Sequence record: PQ356293.1 | DNA from: Escherichia phage KKE5P | Strand: one strand, 5' to 3' | DNA length: 39,118 nt | Part shown: piece after piece, positions 1,300 through 39,118 of the stretch | Position numbering within the stretch: position 1 is the first letter of the stretch | Layout: each line of letters starts with the position of its first letter | The notes under the pieces: model-generated | Told to the model about the DNA's origin: nothing | The model's input: the letters and a program-made list of their open reading frames with translations, nothing else | Database searches by the model: none | Position numbers and translations under genes: made by a program

Positions 1300-1605
1300 T
1301 TATTTCTTGACAAGTTTACGTTCTCTGTTTGTCTTAACAACATGGTCCCGCTTCGGTATACACTGTAGGTGCTCCACGTTGCAGCACCCTCTATTTAGGC
1401 ATAGATGGTCTATCTCGTAACCATCTGGTATAGGTCCTCGGTGTTGCTCCCACACCCATCGGTGGAACATGAAGTTCTTCTTCTCACCTTTACGAGAAGA
1501 CCCTACGCTGTACCGGAAGTATCCATCTTGGTTTCTCTTATGGGAAACGCATACGATACATCCGGTAGGCATCTTGTGAAACCGTAATGTAGCAACGCCT
1601 CCCAT
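1300..1605 (-). CDS. 5.3: gp5.3-position HNH-motif protein, about 101 aa
   Basis: GGAGGT SD then ATG at 1603..1605 just after gene 5 stop; HNH-like motif DGYEIDHLCLNRGCCNVEHL. Confidence 0.7.
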   Translation of the reverse strand: MGGVATLRFHKMPTGCIVCVSHKRNQDGYFRYSVGSSRKGEKKNFMFHRWVWEQHRGPIPDGYEIDHLCLNRGCCNVEHLQCIPKRDHVVKTNRERKLVKK

Positions 1606-7055: not shown

Positions 7056-7504
7056 TATTTATTTCCTCCTTTCCTTTTTAATCTATCAAAGGGGACCTCC
7101 TTCTTGGGTTCCTTTATCCACTCAGCAGGTATCAGTTTATCAGCGAACTTAATACCATGCTTTTCGCAGAACTCTCCATAAGACGTTGGAGAACCTTTGT
7201 ATAACTTAGTACGTGAGCTTGAGAAGACAATACGGATGTCTAGCTCGGGGTGCTGCTCTCTAATTAATAAGTGCTTCTTTCTATCATCGCTTTCCCACAG
7301 ACCCTTTGTCTCAACGAATATACCGTTGGGAAGTAAGAAGTCTGGAGTGTAAGTGTGATTGCTCGCCGGAATTACATAAGGCACTTTCCACTCTTCATAC
7401 TCGAATTTAATACCTTTTGATTCCAACTGCTTTGAAACCTTGTCCTCTAGGCCAGAGCGAAACGCTCCAACCTTTCGGATTCCTTTAGCGCCGTAACCTG
7501 CCAT
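7055..7504 (-). CDS. 3: Endonuclease I gp3, 149 aa
   Basis: MAGYGAKGIRKVGAFRSGLEDKVSKQLESKGIKFEYEEWKV...; track ORF 7055..7552 trimmed to ATG 7502..7504. Confidence 0.9.
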   Translation of the reverse strand: MAGYGAKGIRKVGAFRSGLEDKVSKQLESKGIKFEYEEWKVPYVIPASNHTYTPDFLLPNGIFVETKGLWESDDRKKHLLIREQHPELDIRIVFSSSRTKLYKGSPTSYGEFCEKHGIKFADKLIPAEWIKEPKKEVPFDRLKRKGGNK

Positions 7505-7904
7505 GTCGCCTCCCTTTGCGTATATCACAAATAGTCTGTTGGGAGACACCATAGGTGCGAGCTAAGGATACATTGGACTCGCTGGACTCCATGATTGCCA
7601 TTACGTCTTCGTCTGAAAGTTTATACCCCTTGTGTGAGCGACCCTTATTTACCATGTCGGCGGAGTTCTCTTTTGGAGTTCCTATGGATAGGTGTTCAGG
7701 GTTACAACATAATGGATTATCACAGGAGTGCAGGACGGTAGAACCTTTCGGAGCATTAGACATTACACGATGGCAGTAGACAACCTTTCCGGTATTGCTA
7801 CACCACACCTGCCCGTAACCTTTAGAGTTCTTCGCACCCTGCCACTCCCAACATCCAGCGGAAGTCACCCTGACTCTCTCAAGGATTTTCTCCCGCAGTT
7901 CCAC
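7485..7904 (-). CDS. 2.8: gp2.8, HNH-motif protein, 139 aa (apparent GTG start)
   Basis: First codon at 7902..7904 is GTG on the coding strand, GGAGA about 8 nt upstream; motif CHRVMSNAPKGSTVLHSCDNPLCCNPEHL. Confidence 0.75.
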   Translation of the reverse strand: MELREKILERVRVTSAGCWEWQGAKNSKGYGQVWCSNTGKVVYCHRVMSNAPKGSTVLHSCDNPLCCNPEHLSIGTPKENSADMVNKGRSHKGYKLSDEDVMAIMESSESNVSLARTYGVSQQTICDIRKGRRHGRLRR

Positions 7905-8606
7905 TTAGAAGTCTCCGTCTTCGTCTTCTTCTTCGTAGGACTCACTGTCGTCTTCGTCCCAGCTTTCTTCGTCGCGTGGTTTGCTCGCTTTGGCAGAACC
8001 AGAGGCAACATAGCCGCTCTCTTCAACTTCGTCAGCCCAATCGTCTTCACCACCACCAAAGGTAGCCAGTTCGACCAGCATTACGGATTCCAGTTGCAGC
8101 TTAACGCTTGCACCTACAGCGGTGTTCCACTTGTACGGAACCAGAGAGTACTTGACTTTCAGCTTAGAGCCGCCACCGATAATCGGAACGTCTTCAATCT
8201 TCTTACCTTTGGAGTCCACCACAACCAGATTGATGTGCTTGGTCTCTTTGGTCTTCTTGTCTTGGAAGGAAGCATAGCACTTGAACTTAAAGGTAGTCGT
8301 ACCGTCACCGTTATCGAAGAACGGCATGTCGCCTTCATACGGTTTCAGCGGTTTCTTACCACGAGCTACAGCAGGCGGGTTAGCTTCGTACTCCTCAACG
8401 GCAGCAGCATAAGCCTCTTCGTGACACTTCACGATTTCATCGACCATACGCTGGCAGCGCGGGTCTTTGTTGGGAATAGTCAGGTCAACTTTGTAGACAC
8501 CACGAGGGTTCCCGAAGCCACGCTCTTCGTTACCGTAGTCCGGCTTAGCGATGTAAGCGTAAGGTTCAGCAATACCCAGCGCAGAGGTGAAAATCTTCTT
8601 AGCCAT
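7905..8606 (-). CDS. 2.5: ssDNA-binding protein gp2.5, 233 aa
   Basis: MAKKIFTSALGIAEPYAYIAKPDYGNEERGFGNPRGVYKVDLTIPNKDP... with acidic C-terminal tail ending DGDF. Confidence 0.95.
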   Translation of the reverse strand: MAKKIFTSALGIAEPYAYIAKPDYGNEERGFGNPRGVYKVDLTIPNKDPRCQRMVDEIVKCHEEAYAAAVEEYEANPPAVARGKKPLKPYEGDMPFFDNGDGTTTFKFKCYASFQDKKTKETKHINLVVVDSKGKKIEDVPIIGGGSKLKVKYSLVPYKWNTAVGASVKLQLESVMLVELATFGGGEDDWADEVEESGYVASGSAKASKPRDEESWDEDDSESYEEEDEDGDF

Positions 8607-9744: not shown

Positions 9745-10836
9745 TTACATTTTCTCTTGAGGGTTGTCCTCGGTGCCACGGAACATTACGAACGATGGGT
9801 GACGCAGAGAACCATCGGGTGTTTCCTCCATGTAGCTGATTTGGCAAGCGTAGCTGTTGTACGGGTTGATGTCGTCCAGCGATTCCATACCGCACTCCTC
9901 GCGCTCAACGTCAGTCATGCAGTGGTTCCATACGTACATCCGTTCTTCGATAACCTTGGCGGTGAACTCGTCCATTAAGGCGCGAGAGATGTTTGTGGCG
10001 TTAACTACACGACCACTCTCAAGAAGCACCTCAAAACCAATCACTTTACCTTCATTAGCCAGACCTTTTGTACCCCATACCAGACCCTGAATGATTCCGT
10101 CAGCTTCGTTTTCAGGTTTCATTTTCCACCAGCCGGACTTCTTACCGCGCTTATAGATACACATCGGGTCTTTCACAATGAGACCCTCATGCCCTTCCGC
10201 TCGCTTCTGCTCGTACAGTTGCTGTAGTTCTACCATGTCGTAGACCTCGTAAGACTCAGCCGCTTGCCATTCGATTTCTGGAAAGTATTCCTGTAGCAGA
10301 GGCAGCATGTTCTTAACGTGTTCCTGCATGAGCAACGTCATGACATCGCAGTCTTCTCCAGACTCCACGAGGTGCAGTGGTAGGATAGCGTACAGTTTGA
10401 CTTGGAGTTTTGCGGCGTGTAAGTTGAACGGAACTTTATCTTTCTTACGGACTGGTTCAACGAATAACACTTCATGGAACTCTTGGTTCTTAGTGTCTGT
10501 CCATTTGGTGCGCAGTAGGCCAGACCCTGCGTTGAAGTCTACACCTTTGACCATGAGTTCCCCATCAAGCATAAAGCCATCCTTGTAGAAGCAACGGTCA
10601 TCGCTCAGTAAACGCTTCCAGCGAACATCGAATCCGTTTAAGTGCTCCAGTGCCGGAATCGTTTTAGATACACGAGAGAGCCAGCAACTGTTAGCAGTAT
10701 TGTCTACGCAGATGTTCCCACGCACACCATCGTACTTAATGTCAGCGATAAGATACCCAGCGTTATCCAGAGCTTTCTTAATGGAAGACTCTGCGAAAGA
10801 TGTTGCTTTAAACGGGTTGGTCTTAATGTTCATCAT
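9745..10836 (-). CDS. 1.3: ATP-dependent DNA ligase gp1.3, 363 aa
   Basis: MMNIKTNPFKATSFAESSIKKALDNAGYLIADIKYDGVRGNICVD... with KYDGVRG adenylation motif. Confidence 0.97.
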   Translation of the reverse strand: MMNIKTNPFKATSFAESSIKKALDNAGYLIADIKYDGVRGNICVDNTANSCWLSRVSKTIPALEHLNGFDVRWKRLLSDDRCFYKDGFMLDGELMVKGVDFNAGSGLLRTKWTDTKNQEFHEVLFVEPVRKKDKVPFNLHAAKLQVKLYAILPLHLVESGEDCDVMTLLMQEHVKNMLPLLQEYFPEIEWQAAESYEVYDMVELQQLYEQKRAEGHEGLIVKDPMCIYKRGKKSGWWKMKPENEADGIIQGLVWGTKGLANEGKVIGFEVLLESGRVVNATNISRALMDEFTAKVIEERMYVWNHCMTDVEREECGMESLDDINPYNSYACQISYMEETPDGSLRHPSFVMFRGTEDNPQEKM

Positions 10837-14159: not shown

Positions 14160-14212
14160 AATAAATCGTATCTATTCAGGCCACCCGTAGATGACCTGTA
14201 AGATAAGACTAT
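14160..14212 (-). promoter_or_regulatory. RNase III processing hairpin (R1-like) upstream of gene 1
   Basis: Phage-sense ttatcttacaggtcatctacgggtggcctgaatag. Confidence 0.55.
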
Positions 14213-15291
14213 CAGCCCATAAACATTGCGTCAAGTTTCTTATCGATGTTAAGTGCGCGACCACCAGCGATAGCCATTCTGTCAACGTTGTGCCAATGCG
14301 CTGCAATTCGTTCCTCAAGAGCCTTAAAGTCCATAGCGAACATATTGTCGCAGAGCATAGCGATATTGGTCCATCCCATTACATTCACAGCCACCTCATG
14401 GTTACGAAGTTCTTGGCGCTCAGCCATGCGCAACTCAGCAAGCATTCTCTTGCGTTTCGCTTGGTGTGCTTTACGTGCCTTACGGTTACGGCGCTTTACT
14501 TTGCGTGCCTCCAATCGGCCCACATGACGTGCCTTACGTTCCTTAGCGCGGTCGATTACTTTCTGTCGTGCGGCCTCCTCGACTTCCCTAATGAGTTCCT
14601 CAGGGTCAATGCTGAATGCGCCACCGTCTTTCTTCTGAGAGAATGACACAGGGTCGGTAATGTACGGTACATCGTTATCATCGAACATGATGTTGCCACT
14701 GTGCATGTCAAACGATGCGATTCCCTCAAAGAACTTGCGGATTAGCTTGCAAGTCTCGACGAACTCGCCATCCCATCCAGTTAACCCATCGTGCGCACCT
14801 GATTTGTAGTCAATGATGTCTCTTGCAATCTCAGCATACTTCTCGTGAGTGTCATTACCCCACGATTCACAGTCGTTGAGCGCATCCAGCACCACCGTAT
14901 AGCATCCAGCGTGGCGCTGTACATCGTAGACGTTAGGGATACCAGCGCGACCCTGATACATGCGGCAGAATGCGGTATATGCAGCGCCTGAGTCCTCTTT
15001 CTTAAAGCCCACCTTAATCACTCTGTTAGGCAGCAGCGGGTGTCTATAAGCAGCCGAGAAGTGACCATTACCGAGCATCTTAAACCCTGCGTCAGCCGTG
15101 AGACACTTCAAGGTAGTCCACCAATCTTGGTGCTCAAGTGCCTGATTCAGTTCGGTTAACTCCCCATCGCATGTTTCGCTGTTGACCATCTCGACCAGCA
15201 AGTCGATGAGCATACCTTGGCGCTTGTTAAGTTCACAGATTGGCAGTGCTTTGATTGCGTCGATAGCGTTCATGATGTCGGTGATGTTCAC
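14212..15291 (-). CDS. 0.7: Protein kinase / host shut-off protein gp0.7, about 359 aa (apparent GTG start)
   Basis: (V)[49 protein letters not shown]...; T7-type start aligns to GTG at 15289..15291 with GGAGA upstream. Confidence 0.85.
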
Positions 15292-15310: not shown

Positions 15311-15448
15311 TTAGATGTTGTTGAGCTTGCGGTTAGTGCGTAGTTCACGCTTAAGGCGTTCGATTCGCTGTTTCATTGCGAACCCATCAGGCGTGCATAC
15401 AGTTGCCCCGTTGGGCGTGTGGATAGGCATAACGTAGTGTTTCAGCAT
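15311..15448 (-). CDS. Small early protein, 45 aa (gene 0.6-position)
   Basis: Hand translation [45 protein letters not shown]; assignment by position only. Confidence 0.45.
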
Positions 15449-17109: not shown

Positions 17110-17330
17110 AGACAATGATTAAAGGTGTCTCTTTATAGGTAACAACAAGGCGTCTTTAGGTATGGTCTTTAGGTATGGTCTTTAGGTGGAGTCTTTAGAA
17201 GATACTTTAAGATGGGGATTGACTGAATGGGTCTTTAGGTGTAGTCTTTAGGATGTAGGCGGTAGGAATGACTTTAGGAGGTGACTTTAGGAGGATACTT
17301 TAGGAGACTGAACAGATAGGGACACAGAGA
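17110..17330. repeat. Array of about 10 CCTAAAG (plus-strand CTTTAGG) heptamers at about 11-12 bp spacing, left-end side
   Basis: Repeated ctttagg in gtctttaggtatggtctttaggtatggtctttaggtggagtctttag... Confidence 0.7.
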
Positions 17331-17487
17331 GACACTCAAGGTAACACCCAAAGGGACAACTCAAGGTAAACCATAAGGCCATCCCAACCCTTAGGGAACC
17401 CTCAAGGTCAACTGAAAGTTGACTCAAGGTGATTGGCTGGGCTTAAGGGACCCCTATGGGGGAACTTTGGGTTCTTAAACTGTGAGA
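17328..17487. repeat. Probable direct terminal repeat (single collapsed copy); physical left end near 17487
   Basis: RC of 17480..17487 is TCTCACAG, the T7 left-terminal sequence; downstream about 85 percent similar to T7 bases 1-200 from memory; length by analogy. Confidence 0.5.
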
Positions 17488-18135: not shown

Positions 18136-19896
18136 TCACCACTCAATGAAAGACGTACCGTAGCCCTCATCGTCCTCAGAGTACACATCAACTCCTCCTA
18201 CAGACATCTCAATGATATGCGTAGCGGCAACCGTAGGACGCATCATGTGTTCCTCAAGGAAGTCAGCAAGCACTTCACCTTCGACCTTAACGGAATCCAA
18301 CTGCATGGACTCACGGAGATACTCAATGCCTAACGCAAGGGCATCCAATCGGTCATCATGTGCCAGAGCGCCTTTCTCACGAGTGATACGGGTCATCTGG
18401 TAGAACAGTGAGTACTTAACGTCATGCTTACCGTCTACGTCACGAGCGGACTGATAGTCTGCCCTAATGACCTCATCACGAATGACAAGGCGGTGAGTCT
18501 GCATGACTGGCTCAAGGGTATCACAAATACGCATCTCCTTCATACCACGAGCACGAATCTCTTCCATCGCACAGTTGTGGTGTTTAAGGAGGATAGGACT
18601 GAATACCTTACCAAACATACCATCACCGAAGTTACTCTCGTAGACAACCGTCTGGACTCCCCATTGCTTAGCTTTCTTGGCGAGCGACTCAAGGGTCTTA
18701 TCGGAGTAACCATCACGGAAACCTCCAGCTTCCATTAGGTAGATGTAACCGTTGAGGGTGTACAGCACAGCGTAACCTGTTTCATCCTTACCACGACCAC
18801 TTGGGTCAATGACCAGAATCTTCTGTTGATACTGACCAGAGTTGTTGGAGCAGTCGTGATAGGTATGCAGGTCATCACCCTTAAGGCCCACGTTAGGAAG
18901 GTCCTCAATGATGTTCTGACGGTTCGGAAGCCACTGGTAATGCATTGGTGCCTTCTCTAAGTCTAAGGCCGCTACTATAGCGTCACGGAGCCTCAGAGGG
19001 TACTTCTCGGCATCACTCAGGTTCGGGTTAAGCATGAACTGTAGCGTAAAGCCAGCCTTACCGTATTCCAATTCACGCTCACGTAGGTCATCACGGTCGA
19101 ATCGCACAGGGTCTGTTGGAGTACCAGCCAGAGCCTCAGGATTCTCCTCGTACTCCGCACGGAGCATTGGTGCCAGACGCTGAGAGTAGTAGAGGTTCTC
19201 TTCGCGTGTCCTTGGGTATAGAGCAGGCCAGATGATAGTGGTGTACCCACGGTTATCTTCAAGTTCCTTATAGAGAGTCATCTCAGTCTGAGGTGTTCCA
19301 AGGTAGATAACACGAGAAGTTGGCAATGGTTTAAGTAACGCAGCGAACTCCTGAACGAGAGTCCATAGCTTCTCACGGGCACCCATAGTAGCACTGTTAG
19401 ACGGAATCTCAACGTCATCAGCGATGATAATGTCAGCACGGCTACCAGTTAACTGACCAGTGATACCTACCGATTTCACACTAGGAGAGTGGTCAGGCTT
19501 AGCTGGGCCAACGTCAAAGCTGATTACAGAGTCACGCTGTCCGGGTCTCGGCTTCAACTCACTGAGAAACGGTAGAAGGTCAATGATGTTCTTGATGAAG
19601 ATGGAGTTAGCGTCTGCACGTTCCTTAGAAGCTGATACGATAAGTATCTTCAACTGAGGGTCTCTCCATAAGGACCACACAACGAACGCACAAGTGATGA
19701 ACGACTTACCGATACCACGGAAAGCCTGTAGGATGAACTTCTTGTTGTCTCCATTCGCCAGACATCGGGCCATGTCAATTTGACACTTAGTCGGCGGCGG
19801 GAGAGCAAGAGCCTTCCACAATACGAACAGGAACGCCACGAAGTCGCCCTTTAGTTGCGCCACAACGAGCGCATTACGATTGGCCTGAGTAGACAC
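18136..19896 (-). CDS. 19: Terminase large subunit gp19, 586 aa (apparent GTG start)
   Basis: (M)[65 protein letters not shown]...; first codon at 19894..19896 is GTG after AAGGAGGT. Confidence 0.97.
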
Positions 19897-19905
19897 ATTA
19901 CCTCC

Positions 19906-20349
19906 TTACTTGATTTCCTGCTTGCGTTGTAGTTCACGAATAGTATCCTGTAACGCACGAATCCACGCGTCACCCTTCTGTGTCACTGCGATAATACGTT
20001 TAGCATCTCGGTCGTCAAGTTCGGCTCGACCATCAGGCTCGAATCCACACTGACCATCGGAGGTTCCGGTAGTCTTGATTCTGACGCGCAACCGCTTATT
20101 GTCGCTACGCAAATCAGAAATAATCCTATCAGTGCTCCCTTCCAGCGCGGCAAGGTCTTCTTGATACTTAGCCGATATTTCATTGATTGCTCTTTGAGTG
20201 CTCGCTGTAGCCTCAACTCTCTTAACGTACTCATTCTGTACCTCCTGTTTCCACTTGGCGTCCATTGAGTCTGACCCTAGATGCCATCCTAATCCGAATA
20301 GCATCCCAGCGAGAACCCAAGGGACTAGCTTACGTAAAAATTGCAGCAT
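19906..20349 (-). CDS. 18.5: gp18.5 inner-membrane spanin (Rz-like), 147 aa
   Basis: MLQFLRKLVPWVLAGMLFGLGWHLGSDSMDAKWKQEV... with N-terminal TM segment. Confidence 0.9.
   Translation of the reverse strand: MLQFLRKLVPWVLAGMLFGLGWHLGSDSMDAKWKQEVQNEYVKRVEATASTQRAINEISAKYQEDLAALEGSTDRIISDLRSDNKRLRVRIKTTGTSDGQCGFEPDGRAELDDRDAKRIIAVTQKGDAWIRALQDTIRELQRKQEIK
19983..20234 (-). CDS. 18.7: gp18.7 outer-membrane lipoprotein spanin (Rz1-like), embedded in 18.5 in another frame
   Basis: Lipobox-like TISGC and proline-rich tail; embedded +1 frame arrangement. Confidence 0.75.
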   Translation of the reverse strand: MSTLRELRLQRALKEQSMKYRLSIKKTLPRWKGALIGLFLICVATISGCASESRLPEPPMVSVDSSLMVEPNLTTEMLNVLSQ

Positions 20350-20716: not shown

Positions 20717-20920
20717 TCACTCCTTATTGGCTTTCTTCCAGTCAATAATCTTATCGACTACCTTGGCACCAATCTGAACCACTGTGTAGGCGATAGCTGC
20801 AACGTAGAACCACTCATTAAGACTCAGCCCGAAGAAAAGCCGAGCAGCGCCATCAGCCACACCCGTGCCAACAATAGGTGCAGCCTTGACTAACTCATTA
20901 TTAAAATCTAAAGACAGCAT
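20717..20920 (-). CDS. 17.5: Holin gp17.5, 67 aa
   Basis: MLSLDFNNELVKAAPIVGTGVADGAARLFFGLSLNEWFYVAAIAYTVVQIGAKVVDKIIDWKKANKE. Confidence 0.9.
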   Translation of the reverse strand: MLSLDFNNELVKAAPIVGTGVADGAARLFFGLSLNEWFYVAAIAYTVVQIGAKVVDKIIDWKKANKE

Positions 20921-20973
20921 GTATCGTCTCCTTTATTTAAAATATGGACATTCCGTTGTCCTGCTCGTGTTCC

Positions 20974-22851
20974 TTACGTTTGTGGGTAGTCACACACTAC
21001 GTCAATATAGTTGATTGCCTGTACTCCAGAACCTGTAGCCGCTACTAGTTTAACTTGATTCGCCGCAGGGAACTCTAAGGTGTACGACCAGTTAGCTAGA
21101 GTGATGTGCATTCGGTCAGCAGTGTTTGGCTGGAGGAACGGGCTACAACGGTATACCTGAGAGTTGGGGTTTTGGCTATCGGTGTGTGCGCCAATTACTA
21201 GCATCTTGTTGAGAATATCCTCAGAGCAAGTCACTGTTCTTCCAGTCGCAAGTTGTCCTTGAGACGTGCGGTCGCTAAACACTCGGCGAAGGAACTTCTG
21301 TCCAGACTTCTCGAGGTTCTCATTAGTAACCATACGTGTAAGTAGTTCGGTATAAACCTGCTCGACGCGAGAAGCCAACACAGCGGCATCCACTGAACCC
21401 GGATTGTTGACAACACCGTGAGTCCTGATAACCCAGACAATCACGATGCCATTCATACGGGCTTCATTAATGTCCTTCTTGTAGACGTCGTTCCACAGTG
21501 ACGCGTCGAAACCTAACTGAGCACCACCGGTATCGTTAGTTGCACCTTTGTTGGAGCGCCCAGCGTTGTAGAATGCACCAGAGGCACTGGAGGCCAGCTC
21601 ATTATCGGCAAGTGTAATCAGACCCTCAATGTTTGGTAGAGCTGACTTCTGAACGTCACCTACAGTAAACCCAGCGTCACCACGGAACACAGGAGCCTTA
21701 ATGGAACCCGCATAGACACCGTTTAGGTCTGGTACACGGAAAGTGGTCGTACCGTTACCTAAGGTATAGCAACCACGTTTACCGGGGTCAGCAAGCCATA
21801 CGTCGTCAGAGACAACCGGGAGGTGCCCTGCCAGTAACTCAGCGACTAGTGCAGGGAACTGGTTGCGGTTCAATAGTTGCCCGTCACCGTATACTGTACC
21901 CGGCTTAGCGTAAGTACGAGAGTTGTGAATCTCAAACTCACCAACCTGACGTACGGCCACGCCGTTAATCCGGTCAACCAGAGTGTTAAACTGAATTAGC
22001 TTATCGGATTCAGTCTTTGCACTACTTGCAGATGTCGCAGCGTTGCTCTCAGATACAGCGGCCTGTTGAGCAGACGTGTTGGCTGCATCGCGGTAACCCA
22101 GAGCATCATTGGCGTAATCACCAGCACGGTCAGCCTGTGCCTTAGCGTTCGCTACTTGTGCCTGAGAGTTACCCGCAGAGATTGCAGACGCATTAGCGCT
22201 TTCCTCAGAGGTCAACGCCCAATGCTTAGCGGAATACTGATTGGGGACCACGGGTGTACCTTTAGGGTTCTCAGCCCACTTCTTCGCCAACTGCTCGGAA
22301 GCCTTTGAGTTTGTCTCAGAGGTCTTAGCGTTATTCTCAGAAGTCTTCGCTTTGTTCGCACTATCGGCGGCACTACCAGACCAGCGATTCATCTGACCAA
22401 CCGTAACAGCGTCACCGGGGTCAATGCCATCCGCTACATTCACCACACGTCTACCACGCGCATCTAGATGACCATCGTTGTTTACACCTATAGTGTCAGA
22501 CGTTAAATCTCGCGCCTCTTCTGCCACATGCATAGTCTGAATCTGGGCCACGTTAAGGTCATACGCACGGAGGATAGAGCCATCTGTAAAGTCAACCAAT
22601 CGGTCGGTAGTGGATGTAACCCGCCGTACCTCGATGGTTTCATAGCTATCAGCCGGACCCCAAGCCTTAGTTAGGGATATGGTTGTTCGAGTAGCGAATC
22701 GGTAGTCTGCATTGATGGTAAGCACTTTACGGTCCTTACCAATAAGAGTTACCACTACGAACTTACGGGCCAGATACTCAAACGGGATATTAAAATCACG
22801 AGTTGAGCCATCTAACGGGTAAGTCAAAACGGTCTTAATTACGTTAGCCAT
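20974..22851 (-). CDS. 17: Tail fibre gp17, 625 aa (T7-like N-terminal domain, divergent shaft and distal domain)
   Basis: N-terminus MANVIKTVLTYPLDGSTRDFNIPFEYLARKFVVVTLIG... matches T7 gp17; beyond about residue 165 it differs from T7 as recalled. Confidence 0.9.
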   Translation of the reverse strand: MANVIKTVLTYPLDGSTRDFNIPFEYLARKFVVVTLIGKDRKVLTINADYRFATRTTISLTKAWGPADSYETIEVRRVTSTTDRLVDFTDGSILRAYDLNVAQIQTMHVAEEARDLTSDTIGVNNDGHLDARGRRVVNVADGIDPGDAVTVGQMNRWSGSAADSANKAKTSENNAKTSETNSKASEQLAKKWAENPKGTPVVPNQYSAKHWALTSEESANASAISAGNSQAQVANAKAQADRAGDYANDALGYRDAANTSAQQAAVSESNAATSASSAKTESDKLIQFNTLVDRINGVAVRQVGEFEIHNSRTYAKPGTVYGDGQLLNRNQFPALVAELLAGHLPVVSDDVWLADPGKRGCYTLGNGTTTFRVPDLNGVYAGSIKAPVFRGDAGFTVGDVQKSALPNIEGLITLADNELASSASGAFYNAGRSNKGATNDTGGAQLGFDASLWNDVYKKDINEARMNGIVIVWVIRTHGVVNNPGSVDAAVLASRVEQVYTELLTRMVTNENLEKSGQKFLRRVFSDRTSQGQLATGRTVTCSEDILNKMLVIGAHTDSQNPNSQVYRCSPFLQPNTADRMHITLANWSYTLEFPAANQVKLVAATGSGVQAINYIDVVCDYPQT

Positions 22852-35624: not shown

Positions 35625-37232
35625 AATGCCCGGCTGTAAACCTACGGAATCAGCGGCAGCAGCCATAGCCTCAGGAGAAGCTGTAGCCTGTGCAGCCATA
35701 CCTTGACCAAGCGCAGCAGCACCATTGTCCATACCCATTTGCATAGCCTGTTGTGCCATCTGCTGTTGCTTCTGTTCTTCGGTGAGAAGAATGCCAGAAG
35801 TATCAATACCGATAGCGTTGGCAATGCGCAACTTAATCATCGCAAGGTTAATATCAGGGTCATCCCTCATCGGCGCTAGTGCAGCCCACGCAGCAACACA
35901 CCGCTCCAGCTTATCAAGGTCTTGTCCTCGACCGATTGCTTCCAGACCTGTACTAATGGTTGGCTCTACAGCTTCCTTAGGTAACTCAGGAATCTGTTGC
36001 GTGGCTTGTAGTTGCTTCAAGAGCACTCGTACCAGAGGCAATTGTAATTCTTGAGAAAGGATGGAGTAGACACCACCTAAAGTATCTTCAAGTTCAGAAG
36101 CGACATACCGAATCTCTTCGGCGGTCACACGTTCCCCTGTACGCTGAACCGCAGAGTTCAACATAAAGGCAAACGAAAGGCGAGCCTCAATAGCGTCACT
36201 GACGGCCTTGGCTACAGTAAAGTCTGCTTGCTTCTCCAGTTGGAGGAACGAGATGTCTTCTGGGCGACCAGTAACGAAGTCCCCAGTCTGAGCCTTGGTC
36301 AGTCGGCGTGGCTGGGTAATACCAGCAGGGTTCACTAAGCCGATAACCTTAGAGCTAATCATTGACATCTTAACGATAGCCTCTTGGAGATTCTCAAGGG
36401 ACCGTAAGTCACCCAAGTATTCCTCAATGTACGAACGACCATAGGATTCGCCGTCCAGACGAACCATCCGAATCGGGATGTACGGACAAGCCTCTTTAGG
36501 GTAAGTTCCATCGGAGCCTTGTACCTCCATGCCCTCGACCTCTTCGTATCGGAGGTATTCACCAGAGTCCTCATCCAGATAGATGTGAGTGTACACGTCG
36601 ACGGTCTCATCAGCTTTCTTCTCACCACCTTGACCTTCTACAGCCTTACGGATGTCCTCAGGGAGAGCGCCAAAAGCTATCTGGTCACGAGTCACCATTT
36701 GCAGAACGTTGCCGAATGCGTCTCGTTGGACCACATAAGAAGACAATCGGTACAGCTTCATGGGATTGTAGTTTGACCCTTCTGGTTCCGGTAGGTACAG
36801 CAGGACGTTACCCGCTACGACTAACTGCTTGAGAGCCTCAAAGAGAGTCACTCGGTAACTGTTAGACTCAATGTAGTTCATGATGATACGCTCTACCATC
36901 GATAGACCCTCATCAACCTTAGCGAGTCCATCGGGGTCGTTCAGTAACTGTTTTGCCTCATACTCAGAGATGGTCAGCTTCATCCACGTTTGCATCGGGA
37001 AGAGGGCCAACATGAGCTTAGAGGCCAAGTTATTGAGACCGCGAGCACCCACAGCTTGCCACGGAGTCGTGTAGTCTGTGGATGAGTTATCGGAATCCTT
37101 AGGGAAGAGGGACGGAATGGTGTACTGAGCGCAGTTTTGAGCACGAGTCTCGTAAGGAGCGCGGTCGTTCTTCAATCGGTCATAAACGGACTTCGCGCCT
37201 TCCTCGGCTAGACCTGTACGCTTCTCAGCCAT
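35622..37232 (-). CDS. 8: Portal (head-tail connector) protein gp8, 536 aa
   Basis: MAEKRTGLAEEGAKSVYDRLKNDRAPYETRAQNCAQYTIPSLFPKDSDNSSTDYTTPWQAVGARG... Confidence 0.98.
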   Translation of the reverse strand: MAEKRTGLAEEGAKSVYDRLKNDRAPYETRAQNCAQYTIPSLFPKDSDNSSTDYTTPWQAVGARGLNNLASKLMLALFPMQTWMKLTISEYEAKQLLNDPDGLAKVDEGLSMVERIIMNYIESNSYRVTLFEALKQLVVAGNVLLYLPEPEGSNYNPMKLYRLSSYVVQRDAFGNVLQMVTRDQIAFGALPEDIRKAVEGQGGEKKADETVDVYTHIYLDEDSGEYLRYEEVEGMEVQGSDGTYPKEACPYIPIRMVRLDGESYGRSYIEEYLGDLRSLENLQEAIVKMSMISSKVIGLVNPAGITQPRRLTKAQTGDFVTGRPEDISFLQLEKQADFTVAKAVSDAIEARLSFAFMLNSAVQRTGERVTAEEIRYVASELEDTLGGVYSILSQELQLPLVRVLLKQLQATQQIPELPKEAVEPTISTGLEAIGRGQDLDKLERCVAAWAALAPMRDDPDINLAMIKLRIANAIGIDTSGILLTEEQKQQQMAQQAMQMGMDNGAAALGQGMAAQATASPEAMAAAADSVGLQPGI

Positions 37233-37246
37233 GTGTCACCTCCTGT

Positions 37247-37543
37247 TTAAATGTTGATGCCGCCACCAGCGCTACGAGCCACACTCAAGGACTTCTTACC
37301 GCCAGCGCGAGCTTTCTTACGTCCGCTTTCGGTCTGTGCTTCGTCCTCAGTGGAAACCTCTTTCTCTGGTACGTCAACAATCTGTGCAGCAGGAGTGGCC
37401 TGTGCTTGAGGGACCTCTACAACCTGAGCGCCACCATCTGCACCTACTGCACCAGCAAGACCCTTAGCTACCTGCTTTACTGGCTTGGTGACCTGTTTTA
37501 CCACTTTCTTTACGGCCTTCTTGATTTTCTTAAATAAACCCAT
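37247..37543 (-). CDS. 7.3: gp7.3 tail-associated protein, 98 aa
   Basis: MGLFKKIKKAVKKVVKQVTKPVKQVAKGLAGAVGADGGA...SVARSAGGGINI. Confidence 0.85.
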   Translation of the reverse strand: MGLFKKIKKAVKKVVKQVTKPVKQVAKGLAGAVGADGGAQVVEVPQAQATPAAQIVDVPEKEVSTEDEAQTESGRKKARAGGKKSLSVARSAGGGINI

Positions 37544-38095: not shown

Positions 38096-38190
38096 AGAGT
38101 TAAATCTTAAAGTAATAATCATAAAGGCCCCTATCTCCCTATAGTGAGTCGTATTAATTTAGGGACCTTGAGTTTATCACTTAGAGTCTT
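38096..38190 (-). promoter_or_regulatory. RNase III-type imperfect hairpin bracketing phi6.5 (R6.5-like)
   Basis: gtaataatcataaaggcccct ... agggaccttgagtttatcac flank the promoter. Confidence 0.45.
38127..38149 (-). promoter_or_regulatory. T7-RNAP promoter phi6.5
   Basis: Promoter-sense taatacgactcactatagggaga (exact consensus). Confidence 0.85.
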
Positions 38191-38290
38191 GTAACGCCTT
38201 GATTATTCGGGCTAAGTCCCAAAGGCCCCACGCAATGAGGCACATTCCGAGGGCACAAAGACCAATGCCAATATATGCTACGGCCTCCAC
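38177..38290 (-). CDS. 6.3: gp6.3, 37 aa (apparent GTG start overlapping gene 6 end)
   Basis: Hand translation (M)EAVAYIGIGLCALGMCLIAWGLWDLARIIKALQDSK; AAGGAG 8 nt upstream. Confidence 0.5.
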   Translation of the reverse strand: MEAVAYIGIGLCALGMCLIAWGLWDLARIIKALQDSK

Positions 38291-39118
38291 AGGTAAATCT
38301 CCTTGTCAATAAAGTTGTACTCATTGAACCGCAGGATGCGCGCCATCTGGCCTTGCTTGATAACATCCTCTTCGGTCATGCCAGCCTTAGCACCAATGGA
38401 CTTAATGCAGTCCCAGAGCGTCTCATGTGGCTCAGGGTCGCGTTTAACCCACTTAGTGACCTCTTGCCCTTTGTTCTTCCCAGACTTAAGCACAGAGGTC
38501 TTAGGCTCGGTAATGAACGGGTTATTCAGGAAGTCCTCGGCAGTATCACCCCACCCCGCAATCCCTGAGTAACCATCGGTGATGTCACCCTTGATTGTCT
38601 GGAATAGATGCCACCAGTCAGCGGACTCTTCGGTCTGAGTCAGGATGTTACCAGTTGTACACCACAGGAAGTCGCAGTTAGGGATGGTCTTAAAGTCCTT
38701 ATCGCACGAGATGATTACAGCCTTACGAGCACCGAATGCAGACGGATTGGAAGCAATTACTCCCATAACGTCATCACCCTCAAGCATAGGCTCACGGATG
38801 CAATAGAACTCTTCGCGCTCAAAGAGGGCCTCAAGGAACTCAAAGTAACCTACAGGTTTCTTGGTGGCCTTACGGTTAGCCTTGTAGTTCGGGTCCACCA
38901 GTTCTTTGCGCCAGTTAACGCTATCTGTGAACGCAAGGACAATCGGAGCACCTACCCAAGCCTTCTTGCGGGTCTCATAGGACTTGATGGAATCCTCAAG
39001 AATCTGACGGGCCTTAGCGTGGTCACAGCAGCGGTGCCAAATCTCTTCCTCCCATGAGGCATCAAACTCAGCAGCACTCATCGCTTGGAAGACCAGCCAG
39101 TCTCCGTCCATCACGAGG
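38278..39118 (-). CDS. 6: Exonuclease gp6, C-terminal 280 codons (N-terminus runs off window end; see 1..189)
   Basis: ...MDGDWLVFQAMSAAEFDASWEEEIWHRCCDHAKARQILEDSIKSYETRKKAW... matches T7 gp6 to the C-terminus. Confidence 0.95.
   Translation of the reverse strand, partial: LVMDGDWLVFQAMSAAEFDASWEEEIWHRCCDHAKARQILEDSIKSYETRKKAWVGAPIVLAFTDSVNWRKELVDPNYKANRKATKKPVGYFEFLEALFEREEFYCIREPMLEGDDVMGVIASNPSAFGARKAVIISCDKDFKTIPNCDFLWCTTGNILTQTEESADWWHLFQTIKGDITDGYSGIAGWGDTAEDFLNNPFITEPKTSVLKSGKNKGQEVTKWVKRDPEPHETLWDCIKSIGAKAGMTEEDVIKQGQMARILRFNEYNFIDKEIYLWRP

Follow-up and report, generated by a model that had tools for sequence, protein, structure and literature searches.

Results

Four genes of KKE5P begin on GTG

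The window, that is, the whole stretch of 39,118 nt that was analysed, is the complete genome of the T7-like phage KKE5P (genus Teseptimavirus), with its genes on the minus strand. Within it, the genes for a protein kinase (0.7), an HNH endonuclease (2.8), the large terminase subunit (19) and a 37-residue protein (6.3) each begin on a GTG codon, read as CAC on the plus strand at all four positions. The preliminary description had put the starts at these codons on the strength of alignment with T7, and tblastn bears this out: residue 1 of each T7 protein falls on the GTG (gp0.7 residues 1–359 align to 15291..14215, gp2.8 residues 1–128 from 7904 onward, gp19 residues 1–586 to 19896..18139 and gp6.3 residues 1–37 to 38290..38180). 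The features of the four initiation regions are as follows; spacers are the bases between the stated motif and the GTG, and energies refer to predicted pairing with the anti-Shine-Dalgarno (anti-SD) sequence.

15289–15291, minus strand: GTG start of gene 0.7 (protein kinase, 359 aa, CDS 14212..15291), at residue 1 of T7 gp0.7; ATG in T7, the same GTG in NC_048004
15302–15305, minus strand: GGAG Shine-Dalgarno (SD) sequence of gene 0.7; 10-nt spacer, -6.4 kcal/mol; present in all nine GTG carriers
15271–15273, minus strand: in-frame ATG at codon 7 of gene 0.7, an alternative start candidate without an SD (-1.5 kcal/mol); kept in all GTG carriers
7902–7904, minus strand: GTG start of gene 2.8 (HNH endonuclease, 139 aa, CDS 7485..7904); abuts the TAA of gene 2.5 (7905–7907); equivalent to T7 position 9857
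7913–7916, minus strand: GGAG SD of gene 2.8; 8-nt spacer (ACTTCTAA), -6.6 kcal/mol; within the codons for the acidic C-terminus of gp2.5
7502–7504, minus strand: ATG start of gene 3 (endonuclease I); a separate GGGAGG SD for it (7509–7514) lies within the 3′ end of gene 2.8
19894–19896, minus strand: GTG start of gene 19 (terminase large subunit, 586 aa, CDS 18136..19896); equivalent to T7 position 37370
19900–19907, minus strand: AAGGAGGT SD of gene 19; 3-nt spacer (4 nt after the GGAGG core), -13.4 kcal/mol; overlaps the gene 18.5 stop codon (19906–19908)
38288–38290, minus strand: GTG start of gene 6.3 (37-aa DUF5516 protein, CDS 38177..38290); overlaps the end of gene 6, whose stop is at 38278–38280; equivalent to T7 position 18394
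38299–38304, minus strand: AAGGAG SD of gene 6.3; 8-nt spacer, -8.5 kcal/mol; inside the gene 6 coding sequence

An SD-like sequence, as had been claimed for each GTG, does lie about 4–10 nt upstream of all four. Relative to background 20-nt windows, for which the mean pairing energy is -3.1 kcal/mol, the proportion that pairs as strongly is 9.6% for gene 0.7, 7.7% for gene 2.8, 3.6% for gene 6.3 and 0.1% for gene 19. An in-frame ATG farther upstream with a better placed SD would speak against these starts, but none of the four genes has an ATG in frame between its GTG and the nearest stop codon on the 5′ side, which lies 1 codon upstream in gene 2.8, 4 in gene 19, 6 in gene 6.3 and 28 in gene 0.7.

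Other candidate starts were also scored. The sole upstream candidate for gene 0.7, a GTG at 15346–15348, has no SD (-0.6 kcal/mol). The downstream in-frame starts of genes 0.7, 19 and 6.3 pair at -4.4 kcal/mol or weaker, below the claimed GTGs, and two internal GTGs of gene 2.8 reach -5.0 and -5.1 kcal/mol, compared with -6.6 kcal/mol at the claimed start.

To speak of "several" GTG-start genes is accurate: they number 4 of 47 mapped genes (8.5%), a count that leaves out the doubtful internal ORF 19.2 (GTG at 19248–19250, and GTG in T7 too), and all the other mapped genes begin with ATG. Measured against the approximately 14% of E. coli genes that start on GUG, the genome shows no enrichment of GTG starts (binomial P(X>=4) = 0.91). 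Likewise, the notion that GTG genes carry stronger SDs than ATG genes is unsupported (Mann-Whitney P = 0.48, n = 4 versus 43); gene 19 alone among them has an exceptionally strong one.

The genome and its assembly

KKE5P has the gene order of T7 and high identity to it genome-wide, as expected of a member of the Teseptimavirus genus. Syntenic minus-strand matches were found by tblastn for 48 of the 56 T7 proteins queried, most of them at 85–99% amino acid identity, and nucleotide identity to T7 and to vB_EcoP_IME390 is 92–93% across about 90% of a 25-kb query. With T7 proteins as queries, no KKE5P orthologue was found for genes 1.4, 3.8, 5.3, 5.9, 7 and 7.7. The tail-fibre protein gp17 (20921–22851, minus strand) matches that of T7 over residues 1–297 only, at 56% identity, and its C-terminal receptor-binding part is unrelated, which suggests that KKE5P recognises another receptor on its host.

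The two ends of the sequence (1–127 and 38992–39118) are an exact 127-nt direct duplicate, probably a k-mer overlap left when the assembly was circularised. Gene 6 holds the break of this circularly permuted sequence, whose non-redundant length is 38,991 nt. The left end (1–766) and the right end (39100–39937) of T7 both map to 17318–17487 (minus strand), with an overlap of about 170 bp. Hence, the direct terminal repeat (about 170 bp) has been collapsed to a single copy, and the physical genome ends lie in that stretch.

Start codons shared with T7

Reading the start codon of every annotated CDS of the T7 reference (NC_001604) shows that T7 itself uses GTG for genes 2.8, 6.3, 7.7, 17.5, 19 and 19.2, and ATG for gene 0.7. 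The T7 genes 2.8, 6.3 and 19 (CDS 9857.., 18394.. and 37370..) have their GTG at the same aligned residue as their KKE5P counterparts. The proposal that the KKE5P codons are single-base differences from ATG-start relatives thus applies to gene 0.7, where T7 has ATG (A to G), but does not hold against T7 for the other three. The alternative proposal, that the GTG starts are native, is supported for all four, three being those of T7 itself and the fourth being present in 8 of 13 close relatives. The KKE5P GTG starts are therefore already known in substance: three are annotated T7 starts and the fourth is a common variant in the genus. The reverse of the gene 0.7 situation is seen in the holin gene 17.5, which is ATG in KKE5P (20918–20920, minus strand) and GTG in T7.

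Two versions of the gene 0.7 initiation region

The gp0.7 survey covered 78 homologous IMG/VR loci, including 13 close relatives (>=79% amino acid identity). Every one of the 78 carries a start codon where the alignment places residue 1, ATG in 70 and GTG in 8; the GTG-type loci all fall among the 13 close relatives, and the 65 more distant homologues all have ATG. The codon is tied to its upstream sequence. GTG carriers always have GGAG, in the form tGGAGAAyrcacaaa or tGGAGAATATGCAA (-6.4 kcal/mol), and ATG carriers have aAAGGAcaca (-5.3 kcal/mol) or cAGGAcaca (-4.0 kcal/mol). T7 and four other close relatives are of the latter kind, with aaAGGAcaca...ATG (CAGGA in one of them, L012). There are, in other words, two versions of the region, tGGAGAATACACAAAGTG and AAAGGACACAATGCAATG.

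GTG carriers differ from one another by up to 22% in gene 0.7 (78–97% identity), and a neighbour-joining gene tree mixes them with ATG carriers. The GTG version is therefore old and maintained, and it has probably been exchanged by recombination. One of its carriers is an isolate, Salmonella phage 3A_8767 (NC_048004, CDS 7275..8354), in which gene 0.7 has the GTG start and an identical ggagaatacacaaaGTGaacatcacc; its RefSeq record annotates GTG for genes 0.7, 6.3 and 19. The gene 0.7 site of KKE5P is accordingly one of two long-standing versions in the genus: GGAG, 9–10 nt and GTG, found in KKE5P and most of its close relatives, as opposed to AAGGA, about 9 nt and ATG, found in T7.

The spacer differs in length by one base in two relatives, which shows that the bases ahead of the GTG do not encode protein. 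A link between the GTG version and a different upstream gene arrangement, with translational coupling, was considered and rejected: both versions have a short ORF that ends about 20–50 nt upstream. In one close relative (L007, IMGVR_UViG_3300045988_000519) the GTG-start gene 0.7 is shortened to 108 codons by a premature stop.

Genes 6.3 and 19

Gene 6.3 could be located in 15 close relatives, and all 15 have gacaaGGAGatttacctGTG, with GTG and the same SD; a more distant clade has ATG. The product matches Pfam DUF5516 from residue 1 (E = 7e-17). The GTG shares its first G with a CTG (Leu) codon of gene 6, where that G is in third position. With ATG the codon would read CTA, still Leu, and the overlap therefore leaves gene 6.3 free to use ATG.

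Among the 13 closest relatives, nine have GTG for gene 19, one (L089) has ATG at the same position and three lack the GTG and have a new ATG four codons upstream. The recombinant T7 "DNA maturase B" of PDB 4bij aligns over residues 1–476 to residues 1–476 of the GTG-defined gp19, with the same first residue. An out-of-frame ATG overlaps the GTG (aATGTG) and opens a 15-codon ORF (19851–19898, minus strand), as it does in T7; this arrangement is not conserved, since two relatives read caacGTG.

Farther away, terminase genes of the T3-like clade have mostly ATG. In about 45 KP32-like loci (L114–L160), no in-frame ATG precedes the point where the alignment begins; what stands there instead is a TTG directly behind AAGGAGGTG. 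In KP32 itself (L241, NC_013647, 38784–38910), this TTG overlaps the spanin stop codon as TTGA, and the 42 codons that follow it align one-to-one with the N-terminus of the T7 and KKE5P proteins, whereas RefSeq starts the gene at a downstream ATG. On this alignment, the KP32-like terminase gene probably starts on TTG and the RefSeq start for KP32 is probably mis-annotated. Across the T7 group, the start codon of the terminase gene differs by clade, being GTG, apparently TTG, or ATG.

HNH genes at the ribosome-binding sites of their neighbours

Among KKE5P and 16 close relatives (loci L162–L177), gene 2.8 is found only in T7 and KKE5P, always between genes 2.5 and 3 and with sharp boundaries. 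Its product has a Pfam HNH_3 match (score 26.7 bits, cut-off 24.8; E = 4e-6) and is 50% identical to T7 gp7.7; a 2025 preprint names genes 2.8, 3.8 and 7.7 as the three homing endonucleases of T7. An HNH motif and sporadic presence at a fixed site are what would be expected of a homing-type HNH endonuclease, which gene 2.8 is predicted to encode.

In 14 of the other close relatives, gene 3 (endonuclease I) begins immediately behind the gene 2.5 stop codon, as GTG GCT GGC..., and RefSeq annotates this GTG as the gene 3 start in relatives without gene 2.8. Alignment gives the junction as TAA-GTGG-CTGGCGCATAC in these relatives and as TAA-GTGG-(about 400 nt of gene 2.8, ending in GGGAGGCGACATGG)-CAGGTTAC in T7 and KKE5P. 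One and the same SD and GTG thus serve gene 2.8 where it is present and gene 3 where it is not. The insert (7485–7924, minus strand) stands exactly after TAAGTGG and provides gene 3 with another SD (GGGAGG) and an ATG, both found only in genomes with gene 2.8. More distant clades read TAATGG or TAAATGG at the junction. Furthermore, genomes that carry gene 2.8 and genomes that lack it differ strongly in the 5′ part of gene 3, as might be expected from co-conversion during homing.

The other HNH gene of T7 that bears on this pattern, gene 7.7 (L001, 19834–20245), is absent from the corresponding place in KKE5P (37232–37260, minus strand). Its insertion point in T7 is immediately behind the AGGAGGT used by gene 8 in KKE5P, and the gene begins GTGGAA, like its paralogue 2.8. 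Genes 2.8 and 7.7 therefore each lie exactly between the SD of an essential neighbour and the coding sequence of that neighbour (gene 3 and gene 8, respectively), and each would seem to take over the neighbour's SD and to supply a replacement SD and ATG. The gene 3 GTG in relatives without gene 2.8 (TAA-GTG-GCT...) could have been left behind when an HNH gene was gained and lost at a TGG microhomology; it may be either the target of insertion or the scar of HNH loss.

KKE5P has a further HNH ORF between genes 5 and 5.5 (1300–1605, minus strand), at the place of T7 gene 5.3, that encodes 101 aa and matches Pfam HNH_3 (E = 4e-19). It was considered as another GTG start and set aside: it uses an ATG (1603–1605) behind GGAGG.

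Discussion

The four codons are, with a probability of about 0.9, genuine GUG initiation codons inherited within the T7 lineage. If so, the 30S ribosomal subunit would be placed by the upstream SD and initiator fMet-tRNA would pair with the GUG, and each protein would begin with methionine all the same. In E. coli, GUG and UUG initiate at 10–100% of the efficiency of AUG, with methionine at the N-terminus of the product, which makes it plausible that GTG serves to regulate expression level, as the preliminary description had proposed. GUG being less efficient than AUG in that host, a lower output may be expected of the four GTG genes. The codon would then probably restrain the synthesis of proteins that are needed in small amounts or are harmful in excess, namely the host-shutoff kinase, a homing-type HNH nuclease, the 37-aa protein and the catalytic terminase subunit, the last of these from a weak codon combined with a very strong SD. 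In the searchable literature, we found no start-site mapping by N-terminal sequencing or ribosome profiling for KKE5P or T7-like phages and no directly usable statements on T7 GTG starts, and the model of Jack et al. 2019 explicitly leaves differences in initiation rate out.

It is worth considering that the identity of the start codon may be functionally neutral, with GTG and ATG interchanging by drift and with expression set by the SD and local context. The exchanges between KKE5P and T7 go in both directions, genes 0.7 and 17.5 having flipped in opposite senses; a close relative has ATG at the very position of the gene 19 GTG; carriers of the two codons are mixed on the gene 0.7 tree; and SD strength does not differ significantly between GTG and ATG genes. 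The reciprocal flips and the SD comparison make near-neutral drift a serious alternative to a translational throttle. Against it speak, nonetheless, the invariance of GTG in gene 6.3 among close relatives and the strict pairing of GTG with GGAG, and of ATG with AAGGA or CAGGA, in gene 0.7, which suggests linked versions of a whole region. So does the combination of a weak start and a very strong SD in the terminase gene of the T7-like clade (GTG), and of the KP32-like clade as well if its TTG is correctly assigned. We give drift appreciable weight, although it is not the reading that we would choose.

Two further readings can be imagined. If the gene 3 GTG is such a scar, start-codon identity in the T7-like phages would be partly a by-product of homing-endonuclease traffic; and the weak terminase codon (GTG, or TTG if the assigned start is right) with its strong SD would suggest a selected throttle on the packaging ATPase. 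We put these forward tentatively and consider them less likely than not.

For gene 0.7 there is the narrower question of whether translation truly starts at the in-frame ATG of codon 7, the GTG being merely an upstream codon in the same frame. That ATG is found in all nine GTG-type sequences, and some minor or secondary use of it is possible. As the principal start it is improbable: the conserved GGAG would be 28 nt off, an SD of its own is missing, a start codon at the GTG position is common to every homologue surveyed, and distant relatives have no methionine at position 7. Moreover, the ATG-type relative L012 has ACG at codon 7, and RefSeq places the start of gene 0.7 in NC_048004 at the GTG. 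The weakest reading, that the gene 0.7 GTG arose through an error of sequencing or assembly, or through a deleterious mutation of ATG private to KKE5P, might appeal to its single-base difference from T7 and to a metagenome-style assembly with a 127-nt duplicated end, but it is effectively refuted by the same GTG and GGAG in eight independent genomes (78–97% identical in gene 0.7), one of them an isolate with a RefSeq record.

Inheritance of genuine GUG starts thus remains the reading that we favour, and it is of use chiefly for annotation. Gene callers and curators should keep these GTG starts, and the annotation of KP32-type terminases is worth reconsidering, given that insistence on ATG drops 42 conserved N-terminal codons. 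The start codon and SD of gene 0.7, as two linked versions, can be compared to ask how T7-like phages set the dose of their host-shutoff kinase. That HNH genes sit precisely where genes 3 and 8 have their ribosome-binding sites raises the idea that mobile nuclease genes may borrow translation signals. Our understanding of T7 biology is unchanged by these observations; the HNH placement and the terminase start codons are modest leads.

It is informative to set the four starts beside what is already known. The four GTG starts are real but ordinary. The closest comparison is T7, in which the 20 nt upstream of the GTG are identical to those of KKE5P for genes 2.8 and 6.3 and one base off for gene 19. 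The junctions are shared as well: the TAA-GTG after gene 2.5, the overlap of gene 6.3 with the end of gene 6 and the SD lying over the gene 18.5 stop codon. The coding differences are scattered substitutions, with amino acid identities of 94.5% (2.8), 76% (6.3) and 98% (19). Across the Studiervirinae more broadly, the terminase genes of KP32-like (Przondovirus) and T3-like phages resemble that of KKE5P in having a strong SD right before the start. Finally, the KKE5P starts resemble GUG initiation in E. coli in general, which depends on the SD, uses fMet-tRNA and is less efficient than initiation on AUG. There is nothing distinctive in KKE5P by this comparison, and its GTG frequency of 8.5% is, if anything, lower than that of the host.
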